Assembly (NCBI GenBank): GCA_018304505.1
Contig: JAGVWA010000001.1
Location: forward strand, 1,537-65,536
Origin: Nanobdellati archaeon
GTDB lineage: Archaea; B1Sed10-29; JAGVWA01
DNA length: 64,000 nt
Direction of reading: 5' to 3'
Below are positions 3,813-63,646 of the stretch, in pieces (the first letter of the stretch is position 1; each line of letters opens with the position of its first letter). A model generated the notes under the pieces. The model did no database searches, had not been told where the DNA came from, and worked only from the letters and a program-made list of their open reading frames with translations. The translations under genes and the position numbers were made by a program.

Positions 3813-5168
3813 ATGAAGCTACGATGGTACGTGCTGTTGCTGCCAATGCTAATCCTGACGGCACAACTTGGCTTTTCGCAGGCGAGCGTTTGCATTGACT
3901 ATGAACTAAACGCGACAAATGCGCAATTACTTGGGCAGCAATCGCTGGCAGCGCTGAACTTCGAAAAGGCAGGCCTGTGCAACGCCCAGAATCTTCAACT
4001 GACACAATGCACATCGAATTACAAAAAGGCAGCAGACATCTATGTTCAACTTAAGAAAAGCCGCGAAGCTGCTGCTGATTATGACGGCGCGGCAATCTGT
4101 GCACAACAGAACAGCAAGAACACGGACTGCGCGACCCTGTCCATTAGTGCTGCGGAACTGTACAACCAGCTTCTTGATTCCGGAAAAGCAGCTGCCGCCT
4201 ACCTGCGGGCCGCGGTGTGTTATGAAAAAACAACCATGAAAACACCGACCCTTGACAATTACATAAAAGCAGCAGAGGCCTTCAAGAACAACAACGACTA
4301 CGAACAGGCTGACAAGCAATACGAAAAGGCCATAGCGCTTGTTGAAACACAACGCACGCGTACAGCACAACAGTGCAGCCTGTATGCAGAGCGCGGCGCG
4401 ATTTACGAAGATGCAGGCCTGACAACAGGCGCTGCTGCATTCCATAGCCAAGCAGCAGAATGCTACTCTGAAATCAAAGAAAGAAACCTCTGCGAACAAG
4501 CAGCAACAAAGGCAGCGCAACTCACTGCAGACTTTTCAGACATCCAAAGCACACAATATTATGAGCTCGCAGGCAAGTGCTTTGAAAACCCGGGAACTGA
4601 CTTTTCATTAATACAGAAGTGCGACTACTACAACAACCTCGCGGCCACGAAATACAAAAACCTCGAAACCCTAGATAAGGCAGCAGAGGCATACAAAAAC
4701 GTCGCGCTGTGCCATGCGCGCGACCAGGTAAAAACCCTCGTGTCAGATAACTATTACCTGTGCGCAGGAGCTTATCTGCAGGCCGCGCTTGAAGTCGAGA
4801 ACATCCTAAACGCCCTTGACACCTATGACGAGGCCATAGCGTGCTTCATTGCAAACAAGGACACTGAAAAGGCAGAACTTGTACGGCAGTACGTGCGGGA
4901 AATGCAAAGCACCGGCTCATCAGGCATTGACATTGTCGACCTTGCGAACAACCCCGGCAAAAGCCTGAGGCCAAAACCAGCAGCAAACGCCACAGAGCAG
5001 GAACCAGAAGCCACAGAGCCAACAGGGCCAGAGTCAACATCAAGGAGCCCCATTTTTCTCGTGCTGATTCTGATCCTCGGCATCGTCATAATACTCGGGT
5101 TTTTCTACTACCAAAGGATTAAAAAGATGAAAGAACAAGAAGACACTGAACAACCGATGCGGTTCTAG
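3813..5168 (+). CDS. secreted Cys/Ala-rich TPR-like repeat protein with C-terminal membrane anchor
   Basis: N-terminal signal peptide (MKLRWYVLLLPMLILTAQLGFSQA). Repeated KAAEAYK / KAAEAFK helical motifs, a Pro/Thr/Glu linker, then a TM helix plus basic tail (IFLVLILILGIVIILGFFYYQRIKK). Confidence 0.45.
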   Translation: MKLRWYVLLLPMLILTAQLGFSQASVCIDYELNATNAQLLGQQSLAALNFEKAGLCNAQNLQLTQCTSNYKKAADIYVQLKKSREAAADYDGAAICAQQNSKNTDCATLSISAAELYNQLLDSGKAAAAYLRAAVCYEKTTMKTPTLDNYIKAAEAFKNNNDYEQADKQYEKAIALVETQRTRTAQQCSLYAERGAIYEDAGLTTGAAAFHSQAAECYSEIKERNLCEQAATKAAQLTADFSDIQSTQYYELAGKCFENPGTDFSLIQKCDYYNNLAATKYKNLETLDKAAEAYKNVALCHARDQVKTLVSDNYYLCAGAYLQAALEVENILNALDTYDEAIACFIANKDTEKAELVRQYVREMQSTGSSGIDIVDLANNPGKSLRPKPAANATEQEPEATEPTGPESTSRSPIFLVLILILGIVIILGFFYYQRIKKMKEQEDTEQPMRF

Positions 5169-5188
5169 CAACACAGAAGGAATGTAAA

Positions 5189-5995
5189 ATGGTAGTTTTC
5201 GAAACCATCGCAGGCATTATCATTGGGATCATCATACTCAAAGGCATAACCATAGTGAACCAGTACGAACGCGCAGTAAAACTGAGGCTGGGCAAGTACA
5301 CCGGCATACTAGAACCCGGCATGCACTACGTCATCCCATTAGTTGAGCGCATCGAAATGGTAGACACCAGAATCATGACCATTGACATACCAAAACAAGA
5401 GGTCATGACCAAGGATAACGTGCCAGTGGGCATCAACGCAGTAATCTATGCGAAGGTCAAGGACCCGGAAAAAGCCATCCTAAACGTGCGCGATTTTCAT
5501 TATGCCGTGTCAAAATACGGCCAGACCTCATTGAGAAACGTGACTGGCGAAGCCACACTAGATGAGGTTCTTTCTGAACGAGAAAAGATAGCAAGCAAGC
5601 TAGAAAAAATCGTCGACATTGCAACTGCCCCGTGGGGCATTGATGTAACGAATATTGAACTACAGGACATCGAATTACCTGAATCGCTAAAGAGAACAAT
5701 GGCGAAACAAGCAGAGGCAGAACGGGAAAAGCGAGCCACCATTATCAATGCTGAAGGTGAAGTCATTGCAGCTGACAACGTGGCCAAGGCGGCAAGGACA
5801 CTAGCAAGCGCGCCAGGAGCACTACACTTAAGGACATTGCAGACCATCAACGACTTGTCAAGCGACCAATCAAACACCGTGATTTTCGCCGTCCCACTAG
5901 AAGTGCTAAGGGCCTTCGAAGCCGTCGCCGAGTCAAACCCCGAAGTGGCCAAGAAGTTCACAAGCGCCATTAAGAAAGCCACAAAGAAGAAATAA
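5189..5995 (+). CDS. SPFH/band-7 (stomatin/prohibitin-like) membrane protein
   Basis: N-terminal TM followed by an SPFH domain (IVNQYERAVKLRLGKY...PKQEVMTKDNV...) and a coiled-coil tail; GGA RBS upstream. Confidence 0.85.
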   Translation: MVVFETIAGIIIGIIILKGITIVNQYERAVKLRLGKYTGILEPGMHYVIPLVERIEMVDTRIMTIDIPKQEVMTKDNVPVGINAVIYAKVKDPEKAILNVRDFHYAVSKYGQTSLRNVTGEATLDEVLSEREKIASKLEKIVDIATAPWGIDVTNIELQDIELPESLKRTMAKQAEAEREKRATIINAEGEVIAADNVAKAARTLASAPGALHLRTLQTINDLSSDQSNTVIFAVPLEVLRAFEAVAESNPEVAKKFTSAIKKATKKK

Positions 5996-6085
5996 CTCGT
6001 ACCTTTTTTTGAGCACGAGCAGCTTTGCACTTTAATTGACGTGATTTGTCATTGTGAACTACATACAAGCCGTTCCATTACACAA

Positions 6086-6097
6086 CATTTATAAACC
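6086..6097. repeat. 12-nt direct repeat CATTTATAAACC, left flank of AT-rich island
   Basis: An identical 12-mer recurs at 7250-7261. Both lie in a longer imperfect repeat (ccattacacaac...catttataaacc vs ccaccacaacc...catttataaacc). Confidence 0.6.
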
Positions 6098-6179
6098 TAT
6101 AAAATTAGAATTTTCACATCTTTAGGATTAATTACATTCAAGAATAAGTTTATATATCCTAAGATTTTCGTCATAGTAG

Positions 6180-6419
6180 GTGATAAATATCAATATAACA
6201 TTTGAGGATTCGGCAAAGGGAGAAATACTCACATTGCTAGACAAAAAAATCAATGCTGATGGCTTAATTGTTGAGAGAGCAAATCCTAATCAAAAAGTTC
6301 TAACTTTTGAGGGCGAAGAAATATCAATAAATGACTTTGGAGGCGTTAAAAAAGGCTCTGAAGTTTTTATAAAAGATAATTTAATTTCTTTAATGAAACT
6401 CTCAAAAGAAGGCATATAA
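6180..6419 (+). CDS. hypothetical small protein, gene 1 of AT-rich island
   Basis: 79-aa ORF in a ~30% GC island. Its stop TAA shares 1 nt with the ATG of the next ORF, suggesting translational coupling. Confidence 0.4.
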   Translation: MININITFEDSAKGEILTLLDKKINADGLIVERANPNQKVLTFEGEEISINDFGGVKKGSEVFIKDNLISLMKLSKEGI

Positions 6420-7204
6420 TGACTTGGTTTGATAAATTAAAAGGAATTCTAAACATTGATATTAAAACCCCAATCCTTTCTCTCAATTTTAATTCTAACA
6501 ACAAAGTGACTAATAAATACTATGTTAGTCTTGAAAGAGAACTTGATATTAATTTAGCGGCCCTAAGTCCGAAACAAAAGCAGGATATCAAAAAAATCTT
6601 CCCACAAATTTTAGCCAATGAAAAAACTATTTTTAAAAAAGAAACTTTAGACTTATTTGATAGTATTAATGACTACAATAAGAATAAAGAAGGAAAACAA
6701 ATATTGACATTTTTTGAGAATAAAATTCCAAAATATGATTTAGAAGCACTAAATGCTTCACTTTACTTGAGGAGTGTATTTAGAAAAAGAAAAGATATTA
6801 AGAAATTAAAACAGGATATAAATACTACTTTTGGAACTCGCGGAAACAATATCTCAAATTTATGTACTGCAGGCTATTTTGATAATTTTTTAATGGAACT
6901 CTACAATTCTTCACCAGGAACTTTTAATGGCTTATATGAGGATATTGTTTCAAATAAGGCATTAGCTGTTTTTGTAAATGAGCATATGACTAAAGAAAAG
7001 ATTACAGAAGATATTAAAAATAAATTGGATGTATCTAAAAAATATGGAATCAAATTTGTCCATATCCATGGAATAGGAACATCCACTGTTAAAAAAATCA
7101 ATGAATATATTGAAAATAAAGAAAAAAAAGATTTTGATACATTTCATCCTAAGAAAATCCTTAAGGAAGAAAATATTATCATAGTCGAATTAATATTAAA
7201 ATAG
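6419..7204 (+). CDS. hypothetical Lys/Asn-rich protein, gene 2 of AT-rich island
   Basis: 261 aa with strongly AT-biased codon usage unlike its neighbours. C-terminal ...KFVHIHGIGTSTVKKINEYIE is weakly Smr-like; no confident family assignment. Confidence 0.4.
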   Translation: MTWFDKLKGILNIDIKTPILSLNFNSNNKVTNKYYVSLERELDINLAALSPKQKQDIKKIFPQILANEKTIFKKETLDLFDSINDYNKNKEGKQILTFFENKIPKYDLEALNASLYLRSVFRKRKDIKKLKQDINTTFGTRGNNISNLCTAGYFDNFLMELYNSSPGTFNGLYEDIVSNKALAVFVNEHMTKEKITEDIKNKLDVSKKYGIKFVHIHGIGTSTVKKINEYIENKEKKDFDTFHPKKILKEENIIIVELILK

Positions 7205-7249
7205 AGTTTTAACAGATATAACTTATGTGCAAAGCCACCACAACCAAAG

Positions 7250-7261
7250 CATTTATAAACC
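7250..7261. repeat. 12-nt direct repeat CATTTATAAACC, right flank of AT-rich island (may double as dys TATA box)
   Basis: See 6086-6097. Confidence 0.6.
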
Positions 7262-7369
7262 CCAAAAACACGAATAATATTGGCAATGAGGATACCGTCC
7301 CGGACTGATTTGGACACATGAAGAACGGAGTAACTACTGAGCCACTGACATTAACTTGTTATCCCAACT

Positions 7370-8341
7370 ATGCTCTGTGGTCAAATGGAAAAGAAAGACC
7401 TGAAACCAATAAACGACATCAAACTAAACAAGGGCACAACCCAAGACGACATGGTACGGCAAATGCGCGACTCTGGAGGCTTTGTTGCCAAAAAACTCGG
7501 CATTGGAGTTGACATTCTCCAAGACATGGTTTCTGATTCTGACATGCGCGTCATCCTAAGCTTCCCAGCAGCGATCATTTCTACCGGCTGCCGCGGAATA
7601 ATTAAAGACTTAGTGAAGAACAAGCTTGTCGACGCCGTAATAACAACATGCGGCACGCTAGACCATGACCTCGCCCGCGTGTGGCGCGACTACTACCACG
7701 GCGCATTTGAAATGGATGACAAAAAACTCCATCAAGAAAACATCAACCGCGAAGGCAACATATTAATTCCAAACGAATCGTATGGGGAAATTCTTGAGCA
7801 AAAAATGCAGCCGCTGCTATTGAAGTGGTACAATGACGGAGACCGCGACATGGCGCCGCATGAGCTTGTTTGGAAATTCGGCGAAGCACTGGAAAACGAA
7901 GAAAACCGAGAAGAGTCGATCACGTACTGGGCTTGGAAGAACCAAATACCAGTGTTCATTCCGGGCCCGACAGACGGAGCCTGGGGGTGGCAAATGTGGT
8001 ACTTCTACCAGCAGGGCCACAAGGACTTCAACTTAAACTTAATGAAAGAAGCCGATGCTGTTTCTGATTTTGTGCACTCCTCTAAACGGCTTGGCGCACT
8101 GATGCTGGGCGGCGGAATCAGCAAGCACCACACCATCTGGTGGAGCCAGTTCAAGGAAGGGCTTGACAAGGCAGTGTACATTACAACTGCGCCGGAGTGG
8201 GACGGATCGCTCTCGGGCGCACGCTTGCGAGAAGCCGTCAGCTGGGGCAAAGTAAAAGAAGACGCCGACTACGTGACGATTGAAGGCGACGCCACTGTGC
8301 TTTTGCCCCTAATGATTGCCTCATTGTATCAGAGGTTGTGA
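7370..8341 (+). CDS. dys: deoxyhypusine synthase
   Basis: Motifs GGFVAKKLG, ITTCGTLDHD, GPTDGAWG, LGGGISKHH and EAVSWGK are characteristic of deoxyhypusine synthase. Confidence 0.9.
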   Translation: MLCGQMEKKDLKPINDIKLNKGTTQDDMVRQMRDSGGFVAKKLGIGVDILQDMVSDSDMRVILSFPAAIISTGCRGIIKDLVKNKLVDAVITTCGTLDHDLARVWRDYYHGAFEMDDKKLHQENINREGNILIPNESYGEILEQKMQPLLLKWYNDGDRDMAPHELVWKFGEALENEENREESITYWAWKNQIPVFIPGPTDGAWGWQMWYFYQQGHKDFNLNLMKEADAVSDFVHSSKRLGALMLGGGISKHHTIWWSQFKEGLDKAVYITTAPEWDGSLSGARLREAVSWGKVKEDADYVTIEGDATVLLPLMIASLYQRL

Positions 8342-8430
8342 TTTTCGGTATATGGGCACGCGCAGGATCAGCAGACGACTACATGCTGTGATAGAAATAA
8401 TTGGGCATGGCAAAACCGTTTTATATCATG

Positions 8431-8446
8431 TAGTACATATGTACTA
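8431..8446. promoter_or_regulatory. 16-bp perfect palindrome TAGTACATATGTACTA overlapping the RHH start codon; putative autoregulatory operator
   Basis: Read directly. A second inverted repeat aaaac-c-gtttt lies at 8412-8422, with TATA-like ttttatat at 8419-8426. Confidence 0.5.
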
Positions 8447-8681
8447 CGGTGATTTTACGGCAACAGTGCAAGTTAGGCTGACTGCTGATCTTGAAAAACT
8501 CATAAGTGCAGCTGTAAAAAAAGGATTTTATGCGAACAAGTCAGAATTCATAAGAGACGCAATACGCGCGAGGTTTGAACCTGAACTTAGAGACGAGGTG
8601 CTTGCTGAACTCGCCAAGCGATCCAAGTCAAAGAAATTCGTTAGTCATGAAGCAATTATGCAAGAGTTCGGATTGGCATGA
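8439..8681 (+). CDS. ribbon-helix-helix (CopG/ParD-like) DNA-binding protein, putative antitoxin
   Basis: VQVRLTADLEKLISAAVKKGFYANKSEFIRDAIRARF is a canonical ribbon-helix-helix fold. The ATG sits at the centre of a 16-bp perfect palindrome. The stop overlaps the ATG of the RelE remnant as ATGA. Confidence 0.6.
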   Translation: MYYGDFTATVQVRLTADLEKLISAAVKKGFYANKSEFIRDAIRARFEPELRDEVLAELAKRSKSKKFVSHEAIMQEFGLA

Positions 8682-9340: not shown

Positions 9341-9757
9341 ATGCTCATTCAACACGTGGCCTTTGAAGAAACACCAAGTCAGGTGGCAATCCGCGGGTTT
9401 CTAGAAAAACACCCTAAAACCCAGGTAGCCAACGCCACCTTAGTGTTTGGGGAAAAGCACGCGCAGCACGCCATTATTGAGACAAGGCGCGCGTTTGCGG
9501 AGAAACGAAACATCTCTAAAACAGAGGAAATGGAATTCCTCTTACGACTAATGGGCGTCAGGCAAATCAACAAGGCCCTAGAAGCCGCTCTTCCAAACCA
9601 CGAGGCGGTGTTCATCTCGTGGAGCGAGAACGCGAAAGAAAGCTATGATGATTTTCTCGCGCAATTCGGGGCAAAGCACGCCGAGGCAAAGGCGCATACA
9701 CAAGACGAAGTGCTCGACGCCATTGAGCAAACAAGCACCTTCTGGCTAAACAACTAA
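9341..9757 (+). CDS. KEOPS complex subunit Cgi121-like
   Basis: ...LVFGEKHAQHAIIETRRAF...EFLLRLMGVRQINKALE resembles the archaeal Cgi121 motif ILVRASGQRQIHEAI. Leaderless start chosen ~25 nt downstream of TATA gtatatatacc (9310-9320). Confidence 0.5.
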   Translation: MLIQHVAFEETPSQVAIRGFLEKHPKTQVANATLVFGEKHAQHAIIETRRAFAEKRNISKTEEMEFLLRLMGVRQINKALEAALPNHEAVFISWSENAKESYDDFLAQFGAKHAEAKAHTQDEVLDAIEQTSTFWLNN

Positions 9758-10486
9758 CAGCTGCTGCTTGTAATGCTCAAGCATGGCCTCGATTTCATTT
9801 TTCAAATACTTAACAGGGTAAGCCTTGCACTCGCTGCTGGATTTAGGCAGGTGTACGATAACCAAGTCATTGATTTCCAACCCCGGAATTCTGCTCTGCA
9901 AGAGCTTGGCGTATAACGATAACTGCAACGCGTACTGCGTGTAATTATTCGCGCTCAAATATTCAATAGGCGGCTTTGCATAATTCCCCCTGCCATTCGA
10001 CATGTCAATCGATTTACTAGTCTTCCAGTCATATACACTAATGTTATTGCCATCCTTGACGATTAGGTCTGCGGTCCCCGCAACGCCAAAATCAACGTTA
10101 AACATTTGCACTTCAGGATGTAATTCATAACTTCTTAGCGGCTCCAGGAATTCCTTGATGGCACCCTCGTGGGATTTTTCAATATCATCACAACCCTCAT
10201 AACTTGGGTCTTTGACAATGTTCTCCGCCAGCGCATGGATCTTATGGCCATAACTGGTAGCGAAATTCTTGTTTTGCTGCCACATGTCAAGCACCTGGGC
10301 CTTTGTCCAGCCCATCTGCTGCGCCTTGAATTCGGCCCAGTACTCTTCTTCAAAACCCGGAAAGAAAGAGTGGATAAACGTGGTCGTTGAAATCAGGGCC
10401 TTGCCGTTGTACGTGTACTCGTGCTTCTCCTCGTCAAACTCCAAGCCCTGCGACAAGAACATCATATATGTATTGGATGGGAACAC
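9746..10486 (-). CDS. PD-(D/E)xK nuclease, phage-type (GME1/YqaJ-like exonuclease family)
   Basis: N-terminal HEYTYNGKALISTTT, then core GTADLIVKD...VYDWKTSK (D...D/E-x-K) and YALQLSLYAKL. This architecture is seen in mobile-element exonucleases. Confidence 0.55.
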   Translation of the reverse strand: MFPSNTYMMFLSQGLEFDEEKHEYTYNGKALISTTTFIHSFFPGFEEEYWAEFKAQQMGWTKAQVLDMWQQNKNFATSYGHKIHALAENIVKDPSYEGCDDIEKSHEGAIKEFLEPLRSYELHPEVQMFNVDFGVAGTADLIVKDGNNISVYDWKTSKSIDMSNGRGNYAKPPIEYLSANNYTQYALQLSLYAKLLQSRIPGLEINDLVIVHLPKSSSECKAYPVKYLKNEIEAMLEHYKQQLLVV

Positions 10487-10554
10487 GTACTAAAAGCTAA
10501 CTATTTTTGGGTTGCAACAAAAATAAACCGAAGAACGAGTTAACGAGTTGCAAC

Positions 10555-10567
10555 TAGAAACCACCAG
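10555..10567 (+). promoter_or_regulatory. conserved upstream element CTAGAAACCAC(C/T)AG of the PIN gene family (copy 1)
   Basis: Near-identical element upstream of all three copies (10555, 25470, 34309). Confidence 0.5.
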
Positions 10568-10596
10568 ACCGCATCGCAAAAAACATATAACTTACA

Positions 10597-11025
10597 TTGT
10601 TTACAATACTATACATGGCGCGGTTGTACATCGACACAAACGTTCTTGTTTATGCCATAGAAGACAGCAAAAACATTTATGGCCAAGACATCGGGAGTTC
10701 TTCATCAAAACTGTTTTGGGAAGCTGCATCTTGTAAGCATCAAGTGATTATCTCCGATTGGACGCTGAATGAATTTAGGCGAATAAGACAAGCTGAAGAC
10801 CTAAAAATGCTGTACTCTATTGCAAAAAAGAAAATAATCCCCATATCATTTGCAAGAGAAGACATTGCTCTGGCTAAACAAGAAAATCCTCATCATTTTC
10901 AAGATGAGCTTCACGGAATCCTCGCCGTACGAGCCGGTGCCGATTATATAATTACTCGAAACACAATTGATTTCGATAAATTCAAGAACCAGATTAAGGT
11001 AGTCAGGCCAGAAGACTTATTCTAG
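10597..11025 (+). CDS. PIN-domain ribonuclease (VapC-like), family copy 1
   Basis: LYIDTNVLVYAIED (first acidic residue of PIN) and C-terminal GADYIITRNTIDFDKF. Paralogous to 25494..25931 and the remnant at 34366..34512. Confidence 0.7.
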   Translation: MFTILYMARLYIDTNVLVYAIEDSKNIYGQDIGSSSSKLFWEAASCKHQVIISDWTLNEFRRIRQAEDLKMLYSIAKKKIIPISFAREDIALAKQENPHHFQDELHGILAVRAGADYIITRNTIDFDKFKNQIKVVRPEDLF

Positions 11026-25411: not shown

Positions 25412-25469
25412 TTCTAAATATCAGCGTAAATAATTAACGTTAACAAGAGATAGAGTAAACTAGTTAAAA

Positions 25470-25484
25470 CTAGAAACCACTAGC
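25470..25484 (+). promoter_or_regulatory. conserved upstream element of the PIN gene family (copy 2)
   Basis: ctagaaaccactag followed by cccccgttctat, shared with copy 3. Confidence 0.5.
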
Positions 25485-25493
25485 CCCCGTTCT

Positions 25494-34262: not shown

Positions 34263-34308
34263 AACCAGCTGCGCCCCCCATTTCTAAATTAACTCGAAGC
34301 GAGATAAA

Positions 34309-34332
34309 CCAGAAACCACTAGCAGTGGTTCT
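34309..34332 (+). promoter_or_regulatory. conserved upstream element of the PIN gene family (copy 3), with inverted repeat
   Basis: ccagaaaccactag-cagtggttct: the arms gaaaccact / agtggttct are near-perfect complements. Confidence 0.5.
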
Positions 34333-59705: not shown

Positions 59706-60305
59706 TCAGCAAAACGAGCTGCCACAGCCGCATGTTGCCCTTGCGTTGGGGTTGCTGAACTTAAAGCCGCTCTCATTCAGGCCGTCTACGTAGTCTACCG
59801 TGACGCCTTTCAACAGGTCGAAGCTATACGGGTTCACGAATATTTTTAGGCCGTCTCGTTCTAGCACCGTGTCACCATCTGCTGGTTTTTCTTCAAATTC
59901 CATTATGTATGACAAACCTGAGCAGCCCCCGGCATGCACGCCGACCCTGAGTCCATGGTCTGCTTTTCCTTCAGATTCAAGTAGGGCCTTAACCTTGGAA
60001 ATGGCCTTTGGCGTTAATGTAACCTCTGCTAGTTGTTCTTGTTCGTTTTGTTCACCCACATCTGTTGACACGATAGCGTTGAGGTCCATGACCAGCGAGT
60101 CGAGATGGTCATTTGTCATGCCATGACCAAGGACACCTTCTTCAAGCGTTTCGAAAACCGCGGCACCGCAGCCCACACAGTGCAGGCCTGCGTTGGTCAT
60201 AGTTTCCGCGAGTTCCATTACCTTGTCTGGATGTGATTCCAGAATTGTGGCTATGGTCATCTTTGGATCGATTTTTTGAATTTGATTTTGAACTTCAGTA
60301 GACAT
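59706..60305 (-). CDS. DUF1858 redox domain fused to HesB/IscA-type Fe-S cluster insertion protein
   Basis: N-terminal ...GLHCVGCG..., C-terminal ...VHAGGCSGLSY...ATCGCGSSFC (IscA CGCG motif). Confidence 0.7.
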   Translation of the reverse strand: MSTEVQNQIQKIDPKMTIATILESHPDKVMELAETMTNAGLHCVGCGAAVFETLEEGVLGHGMTNDHLDSLVMDLNAIVSTDVGEQNEQEQLAEVTLTPKAISKVKALLESEGKADHGLRVGVHAGGCSGLSYIMEFEEKPADGDTVLERDGLKIFVNPYSFDLLKGVTVDYVDGLNESGFKFSNPNARATCGCGSSFC

Positions 60306-62064: not shown

Positions 62065-62451
62065 CTACTTCTTTCGCTTTGCCTGCTTCTTCGCCCTTGT
62101 GGCTTTCTTTGCTGCGGGTTTTCTATTTGCGGCTTTCTTTTTAGCTGCTGGCTTTGCCTTTGCTGCTTTTTTGACGTTCCTCGCTGACGTTCGGACTTGC
62201 TTCTGCATTGCCGTGAGTTCTTTTATCGATGTCGAAAGAACACTGTTGACCTTTATGTCGATTTTCTTTGCCTCTGCAGTCGTGTCTTTTATCAGCTTTG
62301 TTGCCAGCCTTTTGCCTTCCTTTTTGTCAAAGAAGCCTTCCTCTACAAGGAAGTCTGTATAGTCCTTGAAGAGATCCCTAGCGATTTCCACCATGCCCAT
62401 GGGTATGAGGATTGCTTTTTTTGCTGCGCTTGTCGATTTTTTTGCTGCCAT
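62065..62451 (-). CDS. Lys/Ala-rich phasin-like / histone-H1-like protein
   Basis: N-terminal helical domain, then an AKPAAKKK repeat tail; architecture resembles PHA-granule phasins (PhaF-like). Confidence 0.35.
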   Translation of the reverse strand: MAAKKSTSAAKKAILIPMGMVEIARDLFKDYTDFLVEEGFFDKKEGKRLATKLIKDTTAEAKKIDIKVNSVLSTSIKELTAMQKQVRTSARNVKKAAKAKPAAKKKAANRKPAAKKATRAKKQAKRKK

Positions 62452-62514
62452 TTTCTTTAATCACCTTTTGAGTATTAGTTACTGTTCTAAAAGAAATCGT
62501 TGTTTATAAAGGTG

Positions 62515-62555
62515 ATGCTAGGCAGCATCCTATTATATAATCTTAATTCCAGCGC
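62515..62555. repeat. cassette-boundary direct repeat R1 (tgctaggcagc-N20-ttccagcgcc)
   Basis: Read directly; shares 11-nt and 10-nt conserved arms with R2 and R3. Confidence 0.85.
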
Positions 62556-62592
62556 CGTAATTAATATTAAGCAATTAGAGTTTAATAGAAAT

Positions 62593-63267
62593 ATGTCTTA
62601 CAAAGAAATTGTTCTTGAGAGAATCAAAGCAGATAAAGACTTACGAGAAAAACTCAACGTAGTTAAGGAATTTTCTCAAAAAGAAGGAGTTTTAAACCCA
62701 ATAATTACAGCAGGATACATAAGAGACTTTATTCTTGATGGCCCCCAAGGAGACATTGATTTAGTTTATACTGGCAGCATGAAAGACAATGAAGCTTTGA
62801 AGATAATAAGAGATATCGAAAAAGAACAAGGACTTAAGGAAAGCGATTGGGAACCCACAAACCAGAATCATTGGGGCTATGGCCAAACCACAGAAGAGGG
62901 AATTGCATCCTTCATGCACTCCATTAACGCTGTTGGAATAACACACAATTATAAACTGATAGACCCAACCGGCAATGGATTGAGCGATATGGAAAACAAG
63001 ATACTCAGAGCAAATCAAACTAACCAAAAAAACGGAAGAACTGCCACGGTAGGACTTATTGGAATCAGACACATGGTTAACTATAGCCTAATGCCGGCAC
63101 CAGAAACAGAAGAAATAAACAAAGATGCCCACAATTACTGGAATTTATTATCAGAAGATGACAAAAGAAGCATCAAAGGCATCTATGAAAAAACTATAGA
63201 TAAAAACAAATTTGTTGAATTGCTCAAGAAATATAACTTTTACAACCTAGTTAAAAAATACTTATAG
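62593..63267 (+). CDS. class-II-CCA/poly(A) polymerase-like minimal nucleotidyltransferase (cassette 1)
   Basis: ITAGYIRDFILDGPQGDIDLVYTGS closely matches the PolyA_pol head motif GGAVRDxLLGxxxxDxDh. Low-GC codon usage. The track ORF start at 62500 would read through repeat R1, so ATG 62593 is chosen. Confidence 0.55.
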   Translation: MSYKEIVLERIKADKDLREKLNVVKEFSQKEGVLNPIITAGYIRDFILDGPQGDIDLVYTGSMKDNEALKIIRDIEKEQGLKESDWEPTNQNHWGYGQTTEEGIASFMHSINAVGITHNYKLIDPTGNGLSDMENKILRANQTNQKNGRTATVGLIGIRHMVNYSLMPAPETEEINKDAHNYWNLLSEDDKRSIKGIYEKTIDKNKFVELLKKYNFYNLVKKYL

Positions 63268-63310
63268 AAAAAATAGATATGGCGCCATTAAGGCGTATTT
63301 AGATAAAGAG

Positions 63311-63351
63311 TGCTAGGCAGCGTCGTGCCACTTGATCTCTATTCCAGCGCC
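63311..63351. repeat. cassette-boundary direct repeat R2
   Basis: tgctaggcagcgtcgtgccacttgatctctattccagcgcc; preceded by palindrome ATGGCGCCAT and followed by TATA tttatata (63371). Confidence 0.85.
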
Positions 63352-63412
63352 CCGCAAGTGCTGCAAAACATTTATATATTACATGGTATTATAAAGTATA
63401 ATGTGATGTTAT

Positions 63413-63646
63413 ATGGTACAAGTTATGGTAGAATTAACTGAACAGGCCAACAGAACTGTTGAAATAATCAAGGCGACCTACGGAATGAACAGCAAATCAG
63501 ATGTCATTGACATGATTATTGAGAAGTACGGAGAAAAAACCCTAGAACCTCAACTAAGGCCAGAATACATAGAGAAAATCAGAAAGATTAAAGCAGGCAA
63601 ATTCATAACAGTAAAGGACATCAATAAGTATTTTGATGAACTCTAA
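63413..63646 (+). CDS. putative antitoxin (RelB/DUF2683-like) of cassette 2
   Basis: 77-aa ORF immediately upstream of the RelE-like gene. An alternative start at 63425 is possible. Confidence 0.45.
   Translation: MVQVMVELTEQANRTVEIIKATYGMNSKSDVIDMIIEKYGEKTLEPQLRPEYIEKIRKIKAGKFITVKDINKYFDEL

Follow-up and report, generated by a model that had tools for sequence, protein, structure and literature searches.

A conserved two-gene operon of DPANN archaea occupies an AT-rich island in a Nanobdellati genome and encodes a protein with a predicted Smr/Alba-fold domain

We analyzed a 64,000-nucleotide (nt) stretch of DNA from a Nanobdellati archaeon (GenBank assembly GCA_018304505.1, contig JAGVWA010000001.1, positions 1,537 to 65,536 of the forward strand), referred to here as the window, and focused on an AT-rich island of two genes that lies between a stomatin-type gene and the deoxyhypusine synthase gene (dys). 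The original prediction, made from the letters of this DNA, could only see a unique island; our results indicated that the two genes, called the small gene and the large gene below, represent a widespread family in the DPANN group of archaea. It is hardly in doubt that the pair is a real conserved operon, and the copy in this genome was very probably acquired horizontally. The pair is a member of no named family and was undescribed in the libraries and literature that we searched. As for its function, the explanation that we favored, and held tentatively, is that the island arose by recent transfer of a self-contained DPANN two-gene cassette whose products would form a toxin-antitoxin-like complex.

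The sequence bore out the two open reading frames (ORFs) described originally, which encode 79 and 261 amino acids (aa) and overlap as TAATG: the stop codon TAA of the small gene is at 6417-6419 and the ATG of the large gene is at 6419-6421. The 79-aa product was identical to a protein called by NCBI, which labels the window's own proteins "DPANN group archaeon." AT-rich DNA is prone to mis-assembly, and several contigs break inside or just past the island (6383-6396 and 7285/7314), which raised the question of whether the island is an assembly chimera or, alternatively, non-coding AT-rich DNA with chance ORFs. However, contigs from at least six independent samples were 100% identical to the window over the stretches that they covered. 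All of these contigs crossed the left junction (5996-6180), two of them (L088 and L095) crossed the right junction, and another (L091) extended to 7343. Since the same junctions were present in at least six independent samples, the island is not mis-assembled, and every assembly of this organism that we found carried it. Chance ORFs are likewise hard to reconcile with hundreds of homologs of both ORFs, conserved motifs, conserved pairing, and a confident AlphaFold2 model of the large protein. The homologs, identical junctions, model, and pairing thus refuted the chimera and chance-ORF explanation, whose probability we considered negligible.

The contig breaks themselves recurred: four contigs ended at 6383-6396, two Logan contigs ended at 7285, and another began at 7314. 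This pattern was unlike the overlap pattern expected from an island-free variant. Possible causes are poor read coverage where the DNA is AT rich and microdiversity of the population immediately to the right of the island.

A word-indexed search returned 107 homologs of the large protein with 30-49% identity, nearly all of which were 255-290 aa in length. The homologs with a named source were all from DPANN archaea (Woese-, Pace-, Aenigm-, and Nanoarchaeota and Diapherotrites) or from a generic "archaeon," and no cultured DPANN species was among the named homologs. An exhaustive profile search yielded 775 representatives at 50%-identity clustering, including 439 with E values of 1e-30 or less, and essentially all of them shared one architecture of roughly 260-290 aa. 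To characterize the gene pair, we surveyed 83 loci from public assemblies. A homolog of the small protein was encoded immediately upstream and on the same strand in every locus that had enough upstream DNA; each of the eight loci without a small gene had less than 250 nt of upstream sequence. In about 60 of 73 loci, the small-gene stop and the large-gene start were separated by -4 to +6 nt; the conserved operon is translationally coupled. No contig carried more than one copy of the pair.

The small protein was the more conserved partner in 90% of the locus pairs (mean identity, 47% versus 39%), and the divergence of the small protein correlated with that of the large protein (r, 0.72). The correlated divergences and the strong conservation of the small protein indicated that the two proteins evolve as one unit, and this joint evolution suggested that they almost certainly act as a complex. 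The median isoelectric point (pI) was 5.1 for the small protein and 9.1 for the C-terminal domain (C-domain) of the large protein. The features of the window copy, together with those of related loci discussed below, are shown in Table 1.

Table 1. Coordinates of the gene pair, its predicted domains, the island borders, and related features; positions are those of the window unless a locus is named
Feature	Position	Strand	Basis or remark
Small gene, 79 aa, GTG start, acidic product (pI 4.9)	6180..6419	+	ORF; C-terminal block FGGxxKGSExFIKxDLxSL near-invariant
Large gene, 261 aa, basic product (pI 9.3)	6419..7204	+	ORF; start overlaps stop of small gene
AT-rich, compositionally foreign segment (island proper)	6086..7226	+	GC content in 40-nt and 300-nt windows
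Large protein residues 1-50: conserved N-terminal amphipathic helix (MxW[FL]DKLKxL), then three beta-strands	6419..6568	+	Predicted by model
Large protein residues 51-182: all-helical domain	6569..6964	+	Predicted by model; no structural match
Near-invariant R141-G-N-N-I-x-N-L-C-T-A-G-Y-F	6839-6880	+	Helical domain; also D107 and K131
Large protein residues 183-261: beta-alpha-beta-alpha-beta-beta domain, Alba/IF3-C/Smr fold	6965..7201	+	Predicted by model
Invariant H217-G-I-G220	7067-7078	+	beta2-alpha2 turn of C-domain
Left 12-mer CATTTATAAACC, with TATA-like octamer TTTATAAA at 6088-6095	6086..6097	+	At left compositional break
Right 12-mer CATTTATAAACC	7250..7261	+	Sole strong TATA-like element upstream of dys, 108-123 nt before start
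Proximal TATA-like box TTTATATA	6149..6156	+	23 nt before GTG, at -31; probable promoter of pair
tRNA-fragment array regions	L127:62-11470, L118:348-4860, L117:1610-4365		
Degenerate C-domain (...KYVNIHGIGQENVKKIKK...), no intact start codon	L087:5960-6246		Between tyrosine integrase (4646-5764) and serine recombinase (6699-7229)

The original prediction had described the island as AT rich, and we found a deep trough when the guanine-plus-cytosine (GC) content was scanned in 300-nt windows across the whole 64 kb (overall GC, 0.469). Values within 6001-7350 were about 0.25-0.32, those of the surroundings were about 0.47-0.52, and the GC content recovered afterwards. This was the only trough below 0.30 in the 64 kb, and the only further run below 0.36 was at 62301-63601, with minima of 0.33-0.34. 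The GC content of the gene pair was 26.9%, compared to 47.3% for the remaining window. Codon-usage deviation, which had been proposed as a check, was computed as the GC content at third codon positions (GC3), and both genes were strong outliers: GC3 was 0.237 for the small gene (z, -4.8) and 0.210 for the large gene (z, -5.2), relative to a reference of 0.554 +/- 0.066 for 60 other genes in the window, none of which was below 0.355. Because GC3 of both genes was far below that of the host, the AT bias extends to synonymous sites and goes beyond a high Lys, Asn, and Ile content.

In 40-nt windows, the left compositional break was a drop in GC from 0.33-0.40 to 0.20 at about 6080-6098, exactly at the left copy of a 12-mer that is found at both borders. 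The right break was near 7227, which is ~20 nt past the stop codon and 23 nt short of the right copy of the 12-mer. Pfam searches confirmed the proposed identities of the flanking genes, with a Band_7/SPFH (stomatin-type) protein on the left (E, 3.5e-45) and deoxyhypusine synthase on the right (E, 6.9e-103). The island contains the small and large genes only and hence no recombinase gene, precomputed Pfam results showed no integrase among the called genes within 5 kb on either side, and the whole 64 kb contains no tRNA gene and no Rfam family at the gathering threshold.

We then considered whether the pair behaves as a mobile unit in other genomes. In 36 dereplicated loci, the only genes in common were those of the pair itself; 142 neighboring proteins matched 123 Pfam families, and none of these families was present in more than two loci. 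Most of the neighbors were housekeeping genes, including an Spt5/L11/L1/L10 cluster, S4/S13, and S8e, and a minority consisted of a few restriction-modification genes, two integrases, and two IS1 transposases. When the 142 neighbors were compared to PADLOC, the matches shown were restriction-modification components in a few loci and isolated mad2 and PDC-S18 matches. Thus, the pair is a self-contained unit of variable location. In a comparison of 56 loci, TATA-like motifs clustered at -50 to -20 relative to the small gene, and the pair usually carries a promoter of its own.

In a regression on the GC content of the flanking DNA, the GC content of the pair tracked that of the host (r, 0.82) but was on average offset by -7 points, and the window copy was the most extreme at -21 points. 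In an analysis of GC3 at 32 dereplicated loci, the pair was below its flanking genes in 29 (mean difference, -0.10; Wilcoxon p, 2.6e-8) and was the lowest-GC3 unit of the contig in 15, and the deficit was largest in hosts with a higher GC content. This is the pattern that is expected for genes that repeatedly enter from AT-richer sources.

Flanking direct repeats were absent as a family trait, with the exception of one lineage, which is represented by L117, L118, and L127. In these loci, the pair was flanked by direct repeats of 16-34 nt, and the repeats were copies of the last ~35 nt of tRNA-Lys(CTT), AGAGGGTCGGGGGTTCAAATCCCCTCGGGCTCA. An intact tRNA-Lys(CTT) gene was located at L127:62-137 and was followed by six fragments on the same strand, which started at 3982, 5200, 7196, 8453, 9145, and 11431. 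The fragments delimited cassettes of 0.7-3.8 kb, and the pair was exactly one cassette; the others carried radical-SAM enzymes, an aldo-keto reductase, peptidases, and 2-thiouracil desulfurases. All of the synteny breakpoints among the three loci fell on the tRNA-fragment repeats, and the pair, while 94-99% identical among them, adjoined different cassettes. No integrase was found in or beside the cassettes examined. This arrangement looked like tandem accretion and shuffling at a tRNA attachment site or like an integron-like array.

A scan of viral contigs with the large-protein profile produced a single match, a degenerate stand-alone C-domain on an IMG/VR contig (Table 1). A viral origin of the pair was not supported by this one degenerate fragment.

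The 12-mer at the island borders was central to the original prediction, which had proposed an insertion with a duplicated attachment or target sequence. The repeat itself was as described: the window contains exactly two copies of CATTTATAAACC, one at 6086 and one at 7250, and they lie within an imperfect 31-nt direct repeat with 74% identity. A gapped alignment of the two intergenic regions showed nothing beyond the 12-mer. The alternative is that the two copies are independent or shared TATA boxes, with the right copy serving as the dys promoter and the left copy as a distal promoter at the island edge, and we gave this explanation about an even chance. The octamer TTTATAAA within the 12-mer is a canonical archaeal TATA octamer, and similar octamers precede other genes in the window, such as CCTTTATAAACAAC before the gene at 62065-62451; for dys, the right copy is the only strong upstream candidate. 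The identity, however, runs 2 nt past the octamer on each side, with scattered matches over 31 nt, and the left copy coincides with the compositional break. Only 8 of 1,000 dinucleotide shuffles reached the local-alignment score of the 12-mer, yet the match ranked just fifth among 190 real pairs of intergenic regions in the window. The absence of flanking repeats from most family loci and of a recombinase gene from the island also favored promoters. In contrast, transcripts from TATA boxes at these positions would have 5' leaders of unusual length (about 60 nt for the pair and about 90-100 nt for dys), and the probable proximal promoter of the pair is TTTATATA rather than the left copy. We concluded that the border repeat is real but ambiguous, with a shared promoter element favored about two to one over a duplicated attachment or target site. 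The claim of foreign DNA was upheld by GC3, but that of a duplicated target was not established, given the weak statistics, the TATA-like sequence, and the lack of a recombinase.

Several other observations concerned repeats and promoters in the window. A 13-nt exact repeat (D5) arises by chance inside the island. In the all-against-all comparison, the pairs that outscored the border repeat included those with the motif AAC(T/C)AGAAACCAC(C/T)AG, which is present in the intergenic regions at approximately 10540-10575, 25460-25490, and 34300-34330, is unrelated to the island, and could have a regulatory role or represent a small repeat element. The proximal box TTTATATA resembles the host promoter GGTTTATATATCC upstream of the gene at 59706-60305, and its distance from the GTG codon suggested that the transcript of the pair is leaderless or nearly so. 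A 7-nt inverted repeat, TTAGGAT/ATCCTAA (6122-6128 and 6156-6162), brackets this box and could be an operator or a chance occurrence in AT-rich DNA. NCBI annotates dys as a 318-aa protein starting at ATG 7385 (MEKKD...) and not at the first ATG at 7370. With either start, the nearest TATA-like element is the 12-mer, about 110-125 nt away, and dys would have an unusually long leader for an archaeon. A scan for bacterial promoters and terminators was set aside because it is inapplicable to an archaeon.

We looked for an island-free version of this locus, and the original prediction had asked whether the stomatin and dys genes are directly adjacent elsewhere. They were not adjacent in any of 80 dys loci. 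The nearest dys proteins were 66-68% identical among GTDB representatives and 69% identical among 5.8 billion proteins, and their neighbors differed. The GTDB dys scan, the dys search, and an exact look-up of the flanking proteins found no close relative and no island-free variant.

Neither protein was matched by a model in Pfam, NCBIfam, PHROGs, or PADLOC, in agreement with the earlier statement that the large protein has no confident family. When 45 large and 40 small homologs were scanned individually, nothing came up at or near threshold, and searches of the Protein Data Bank (PDB) sequences with full-length, C-domain, and small-protein profiles produced no meaningful matches. A few weak candidates were rejected. 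The prok_STING model matched 6 of the 45 large-protein members (best E, 0.0099), and it was dismissed because the match that we inspected had a score of only 14.6 bits (cutoff, 27.1) and straddled the helix-to-sheet domain boundary. Cas7d, the sole PADLOC match (E, 0.0064), was judged spurious, and a weak match to Cap4 was far below threshold. Matches of the small protein to NHL-repeat-like PDB entries were discounted as mere beta-hairpins.

An AlphaFold2 model of the large protein, which was built on 45 homologs, had a mean predicted local distance difference test (pLDDT) score of 86.6 and a predicted template modeling (pTM) score of 0.70, and it divided the protein into the three parts listed in Table 1. 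Across 227 members, the conserved polar residues were D107, K131, R141, N147, Y153, Y173, Y209, H217, and N223. The conserved residues clustered as RGNNIxNLCTAGYF in the helical domain and as Y-G...I-H-G-I-G..N in the C-domain. The model of the small protein was poor (pLDDT, 58), with values below 50 in its most conserved C-terminal part, as might be expected if this segment folds only when bound to the partner protein.

The C-terminus of the large protein had been called faintly Smr-like, and this suggestion gained ground from the predicted fold, the position of HGIG, and profile alignments. The modeled C-domain has the two-layer beta-alpha-beta-alpha-beta-beta fold that is found in Smr domains and also in Alba. 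We compared the C-domain profile via hhalign to Smr references from the PDB (SmrB 7qgr/7qgn, MutS2 4och, and MutS2 2zqe) and to an Alba reference (2bky). The alignments to Smr spanned 54-76 columns with a pairwise P of about 0.01, and in three Smr domains IHGIG was matched with HGHG/HGKG. Of 200 column-shuffled controls, only 1 reached the Smr alignment score. With Alba (Sso10b), P was 0.5-0.95 and there was no aligned block. H217, G218, and G220 were present in 98%, 95%, and 94% of the members, respectively, and the motif lies in the loop after beta2 (loop 3), which is where Smr domains carry HGxG or TGxG. The second Smr hallmark, DxH or LDxH at the end of beta1, was lacking: the aligned segment, FV[H/N/Y/S/C/G]xxM, is variable and reads VFVNEHM in the window protein. 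In SmrB and Cue2, DxH is the catalytic motif, and it is mutated to ALA in the 7QGR chain.

At the level of sequence, the window protein had no match to Pfam Smr (PF01713) at E values of 1 or less, only 2 of the 45 members matched this model (best E, 0.033), and the C-domain profile found no Smr chain in the PDB. Alba (PF01918) matched neither the window protein nor the 45 members. Previous work located HGXG in loop 3 of Smr domains and showed that its His-701 matters for MutS2 nuclease activity (PMC3200294), and the loss of DxH is common among bona fide SMR domains, having occurred repeatedly in members that continue to bind collided ribosomes via HGxG (PMC10897456). SMR domains were described as absent from archaea (PMC3200294) and, in a later account, as uncommon in Archaea and mainly found in Asgard and Thermoplasmatota (bioRxiv 10.1101/2021.08.16.456513); we found no literature linking them to DPANN. 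On the basis of the model, the C-domain is probably a nucleic-acid-binding domain of the Smr/Alba fold. It has the Smr-type HGxG loop, but sequence-level membership in Smr was not demonstrated, and we put true Smr homology at slightly short of an even chance.

These results led us to weigh several explanations for what the pair does. According to the one that we favored, a cassette from a lower-GC donor would have entered between the host stomatin and deoxyhypusine synthase genes. The small and large proteins would form a stoichiometric complex, in which the large subunit might bind, and possibly cut, RNA, perhaps on the ribosome, via its Smr-like loop and the invariant residues of its helical domain. 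The small acidic subunit would be the obligate partner or the inhibitor of the large subunit. The module would be toxin-antitoxin-like or of the addiction type, and selfishness would account, at least in part, for its persistence and spread. Selfish spread would explain both the variable location and the persistently foreign composition. A toxin-antitoxin-like function is possible and, in our estimation, somewhat doubtful. Even less probable was a more specific version, in which the family would be an unrecognized archaeal branch of the Smr superfamily and a DPANN-wide RNA or ribosome effector that acts only together with a dedicated 80-aa partner, spreading as a promoter-bearing cassette and, in at least one lineage, via integron-like arrays of tRNA-Lys fragments.

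A number of observations weighed against selfish, toxin-antitoxin-like behavior. Conservation is higher in the small protein than in the large one, an unusual feature for an antitoxin, and the small protein is under strong purifying selection. Only one copy of the pair was seen per contig. The family diverges at the pace of host genes: the identity of the large protein was about equal to that of another gene shared by two contigs. Moreover, tRNA adjacency was not general across the family loci. The host-like identity and the lack of general tRNA adjacency suggested long residence in many lineages.

Some of these observations are instead expected if the pair is a DPANN-specific housekeeping complex that is associated with RNA or the ribosome, is inherited mostly vertically, and is intrinsically AT biased, with the window copy being an occasional xenologous acquisition or replacement. 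A single architecture unites this very broad family, its large protein is about as conserved as co-located host genes, its GC content follows that of the host, its neighbors are mostly housekeeping genes, and it has no match to defense or toxin families. The fold class is also typical of RNA- and ribosome-binding proteins (Pop7, IF3-C, Alba, and DxH-less SMR domains; PMC10897456). However, a housekeeping role does not sit well with the lack of conserved synteny in 36 loci, with GC3 values that are systematically under those of host genes, or with the cassette behavior at tRNA-fragment repeats. The named homologs also include no cultured species, and the window copy is plainly foreign. We regarded a housekeeping role as rather unlikely, but only slightly less probable than a toxin-antitoxin-like function.

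The original prediction had also raised an abortive-infection or defense module and suggested a search of defense islands. In such a system, the large protein would be an effector nuclease and the small protein a sensor or regulator. A two-gene, mobile, AT-shifted module with a predicted nuclease-like fold and an invariant His is compatible with this idea, and restriction-modification genes, integrases, or IS1 elements adjoin a minority of the loci. The search itself was negative: neither protein matched PADLOC-DB 2.0, prok_STING and Cap4 were far below threshold, restriction-modification neighbors were few, and most neighborhoods were housekeeping, so the pair is not generally in defense islands. 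In addition, the 261-aa protein has no sensor-like domain (such as NTPase, STAND, or TIR), and the only match on a viral contig was a degenerate fragment. Dedicated anti-virus defense is thus less likely than a toxin-antitoxin-like or a housekeeping role, and we considered it very unlikely.

A few genes downstream of dys were observed in passing. A 121-aa ORF at 8316-8681 has a C-terminus that, by eye only, appeared ribbon-helix-helix-like, and precomputed Pfam results showed a faint PDDEXK_1 match for a gene at 9746-10486 on the reverse strand and a weak PIN_3 match for a gene at 10615-11025. These three may be toxin-antitoxin-type genes near the island.

DPANN genomes are tiny and dominated by hypothetical proteins, and the pair, with about 775 sequence clusters, strict pairing, and no annotation, is among the more widespread unknowns in these genomes. 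If the C-domain is a true Smr relative, a domain of ribosome rescue and RNA cleavage would extend to an archaeal group for which it was not reported in the literature that we found. If the pair is selfish or toxin-antitoxin-like, it would offer a tractable means of tracing gene flow among DPANN lineages, and the tRNA-fragment cassette arrays would hint at a mechanism of that gene flow. If the pair is a housekeeping unit, it would be a candidate DPANN-specific component of RNA metabolism. In each case, the proteins are small and experimentally tractable.

Among known systems, type II toxin-antitoxin modules resemble the pair in that the gene for a small acidic protein lies immediately upstream of the gene for a larger basic protein, to which it is coupled in translation, and in that the larger protein has an RNase-like fold; the adjacent and tightly coupled small and larger genes typical of these modules were found here. 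Variable location, horizontal transfer, and an AT-shifted composition are also shared. Unlike type II modules, the pair has no known toxin or antitoxin domain in Pfam, NCBIfam, or PADLOC, and no DNA-binding fold was evident from the poor model of the small protein. Elements integrated at tRNA genes and integron-like arrays share other properties with the family: in L117, L118, and L127, the pair lies between directly repeated 3' fragments of tRNA-Lys and rearrangement breakpoints fall on the repeats, and the window island is bracketed by a short direct repeat. In contrast to such elements, the cassettes examined are not accompanied by an integrase, the other cassettes carry ordinary enzymes, the repeat in the window is not derived from a tRNA, and the tRNA-Lys-fragment repeats are not attC-like hairpins.

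The closest comparison for the large protein was with Smr proteins, such as Escherichia coli SmrB and SmrA, the C-terminal domain of MutS2, yeast Cue2, and human N4BP2. The DPANN family differs from these proteins in that it has no significant sequence match to Smr in Pfam or the PDB, the position equivalent to DxH is variable, and there is no KOW, MutS, or CUE domain and no N-terminal SmrB hook. It also has an obligate small partner gene, and its hosts are DPANN archaea, whereas the SMR domains reported from Archaea are rare and mainly from Asgard and Thermoplasmatota. Alba and the Alba-like Pop7-Rpp20 have no sequence similarity to the C-domain. The Alba proteins do not have an HGxG loop, whereas the DPANN C-domain does, and Alba is a stand-alone dimer of about 90 aa, whereas the DPANN domain is the C-terminal part of a three-part protein.

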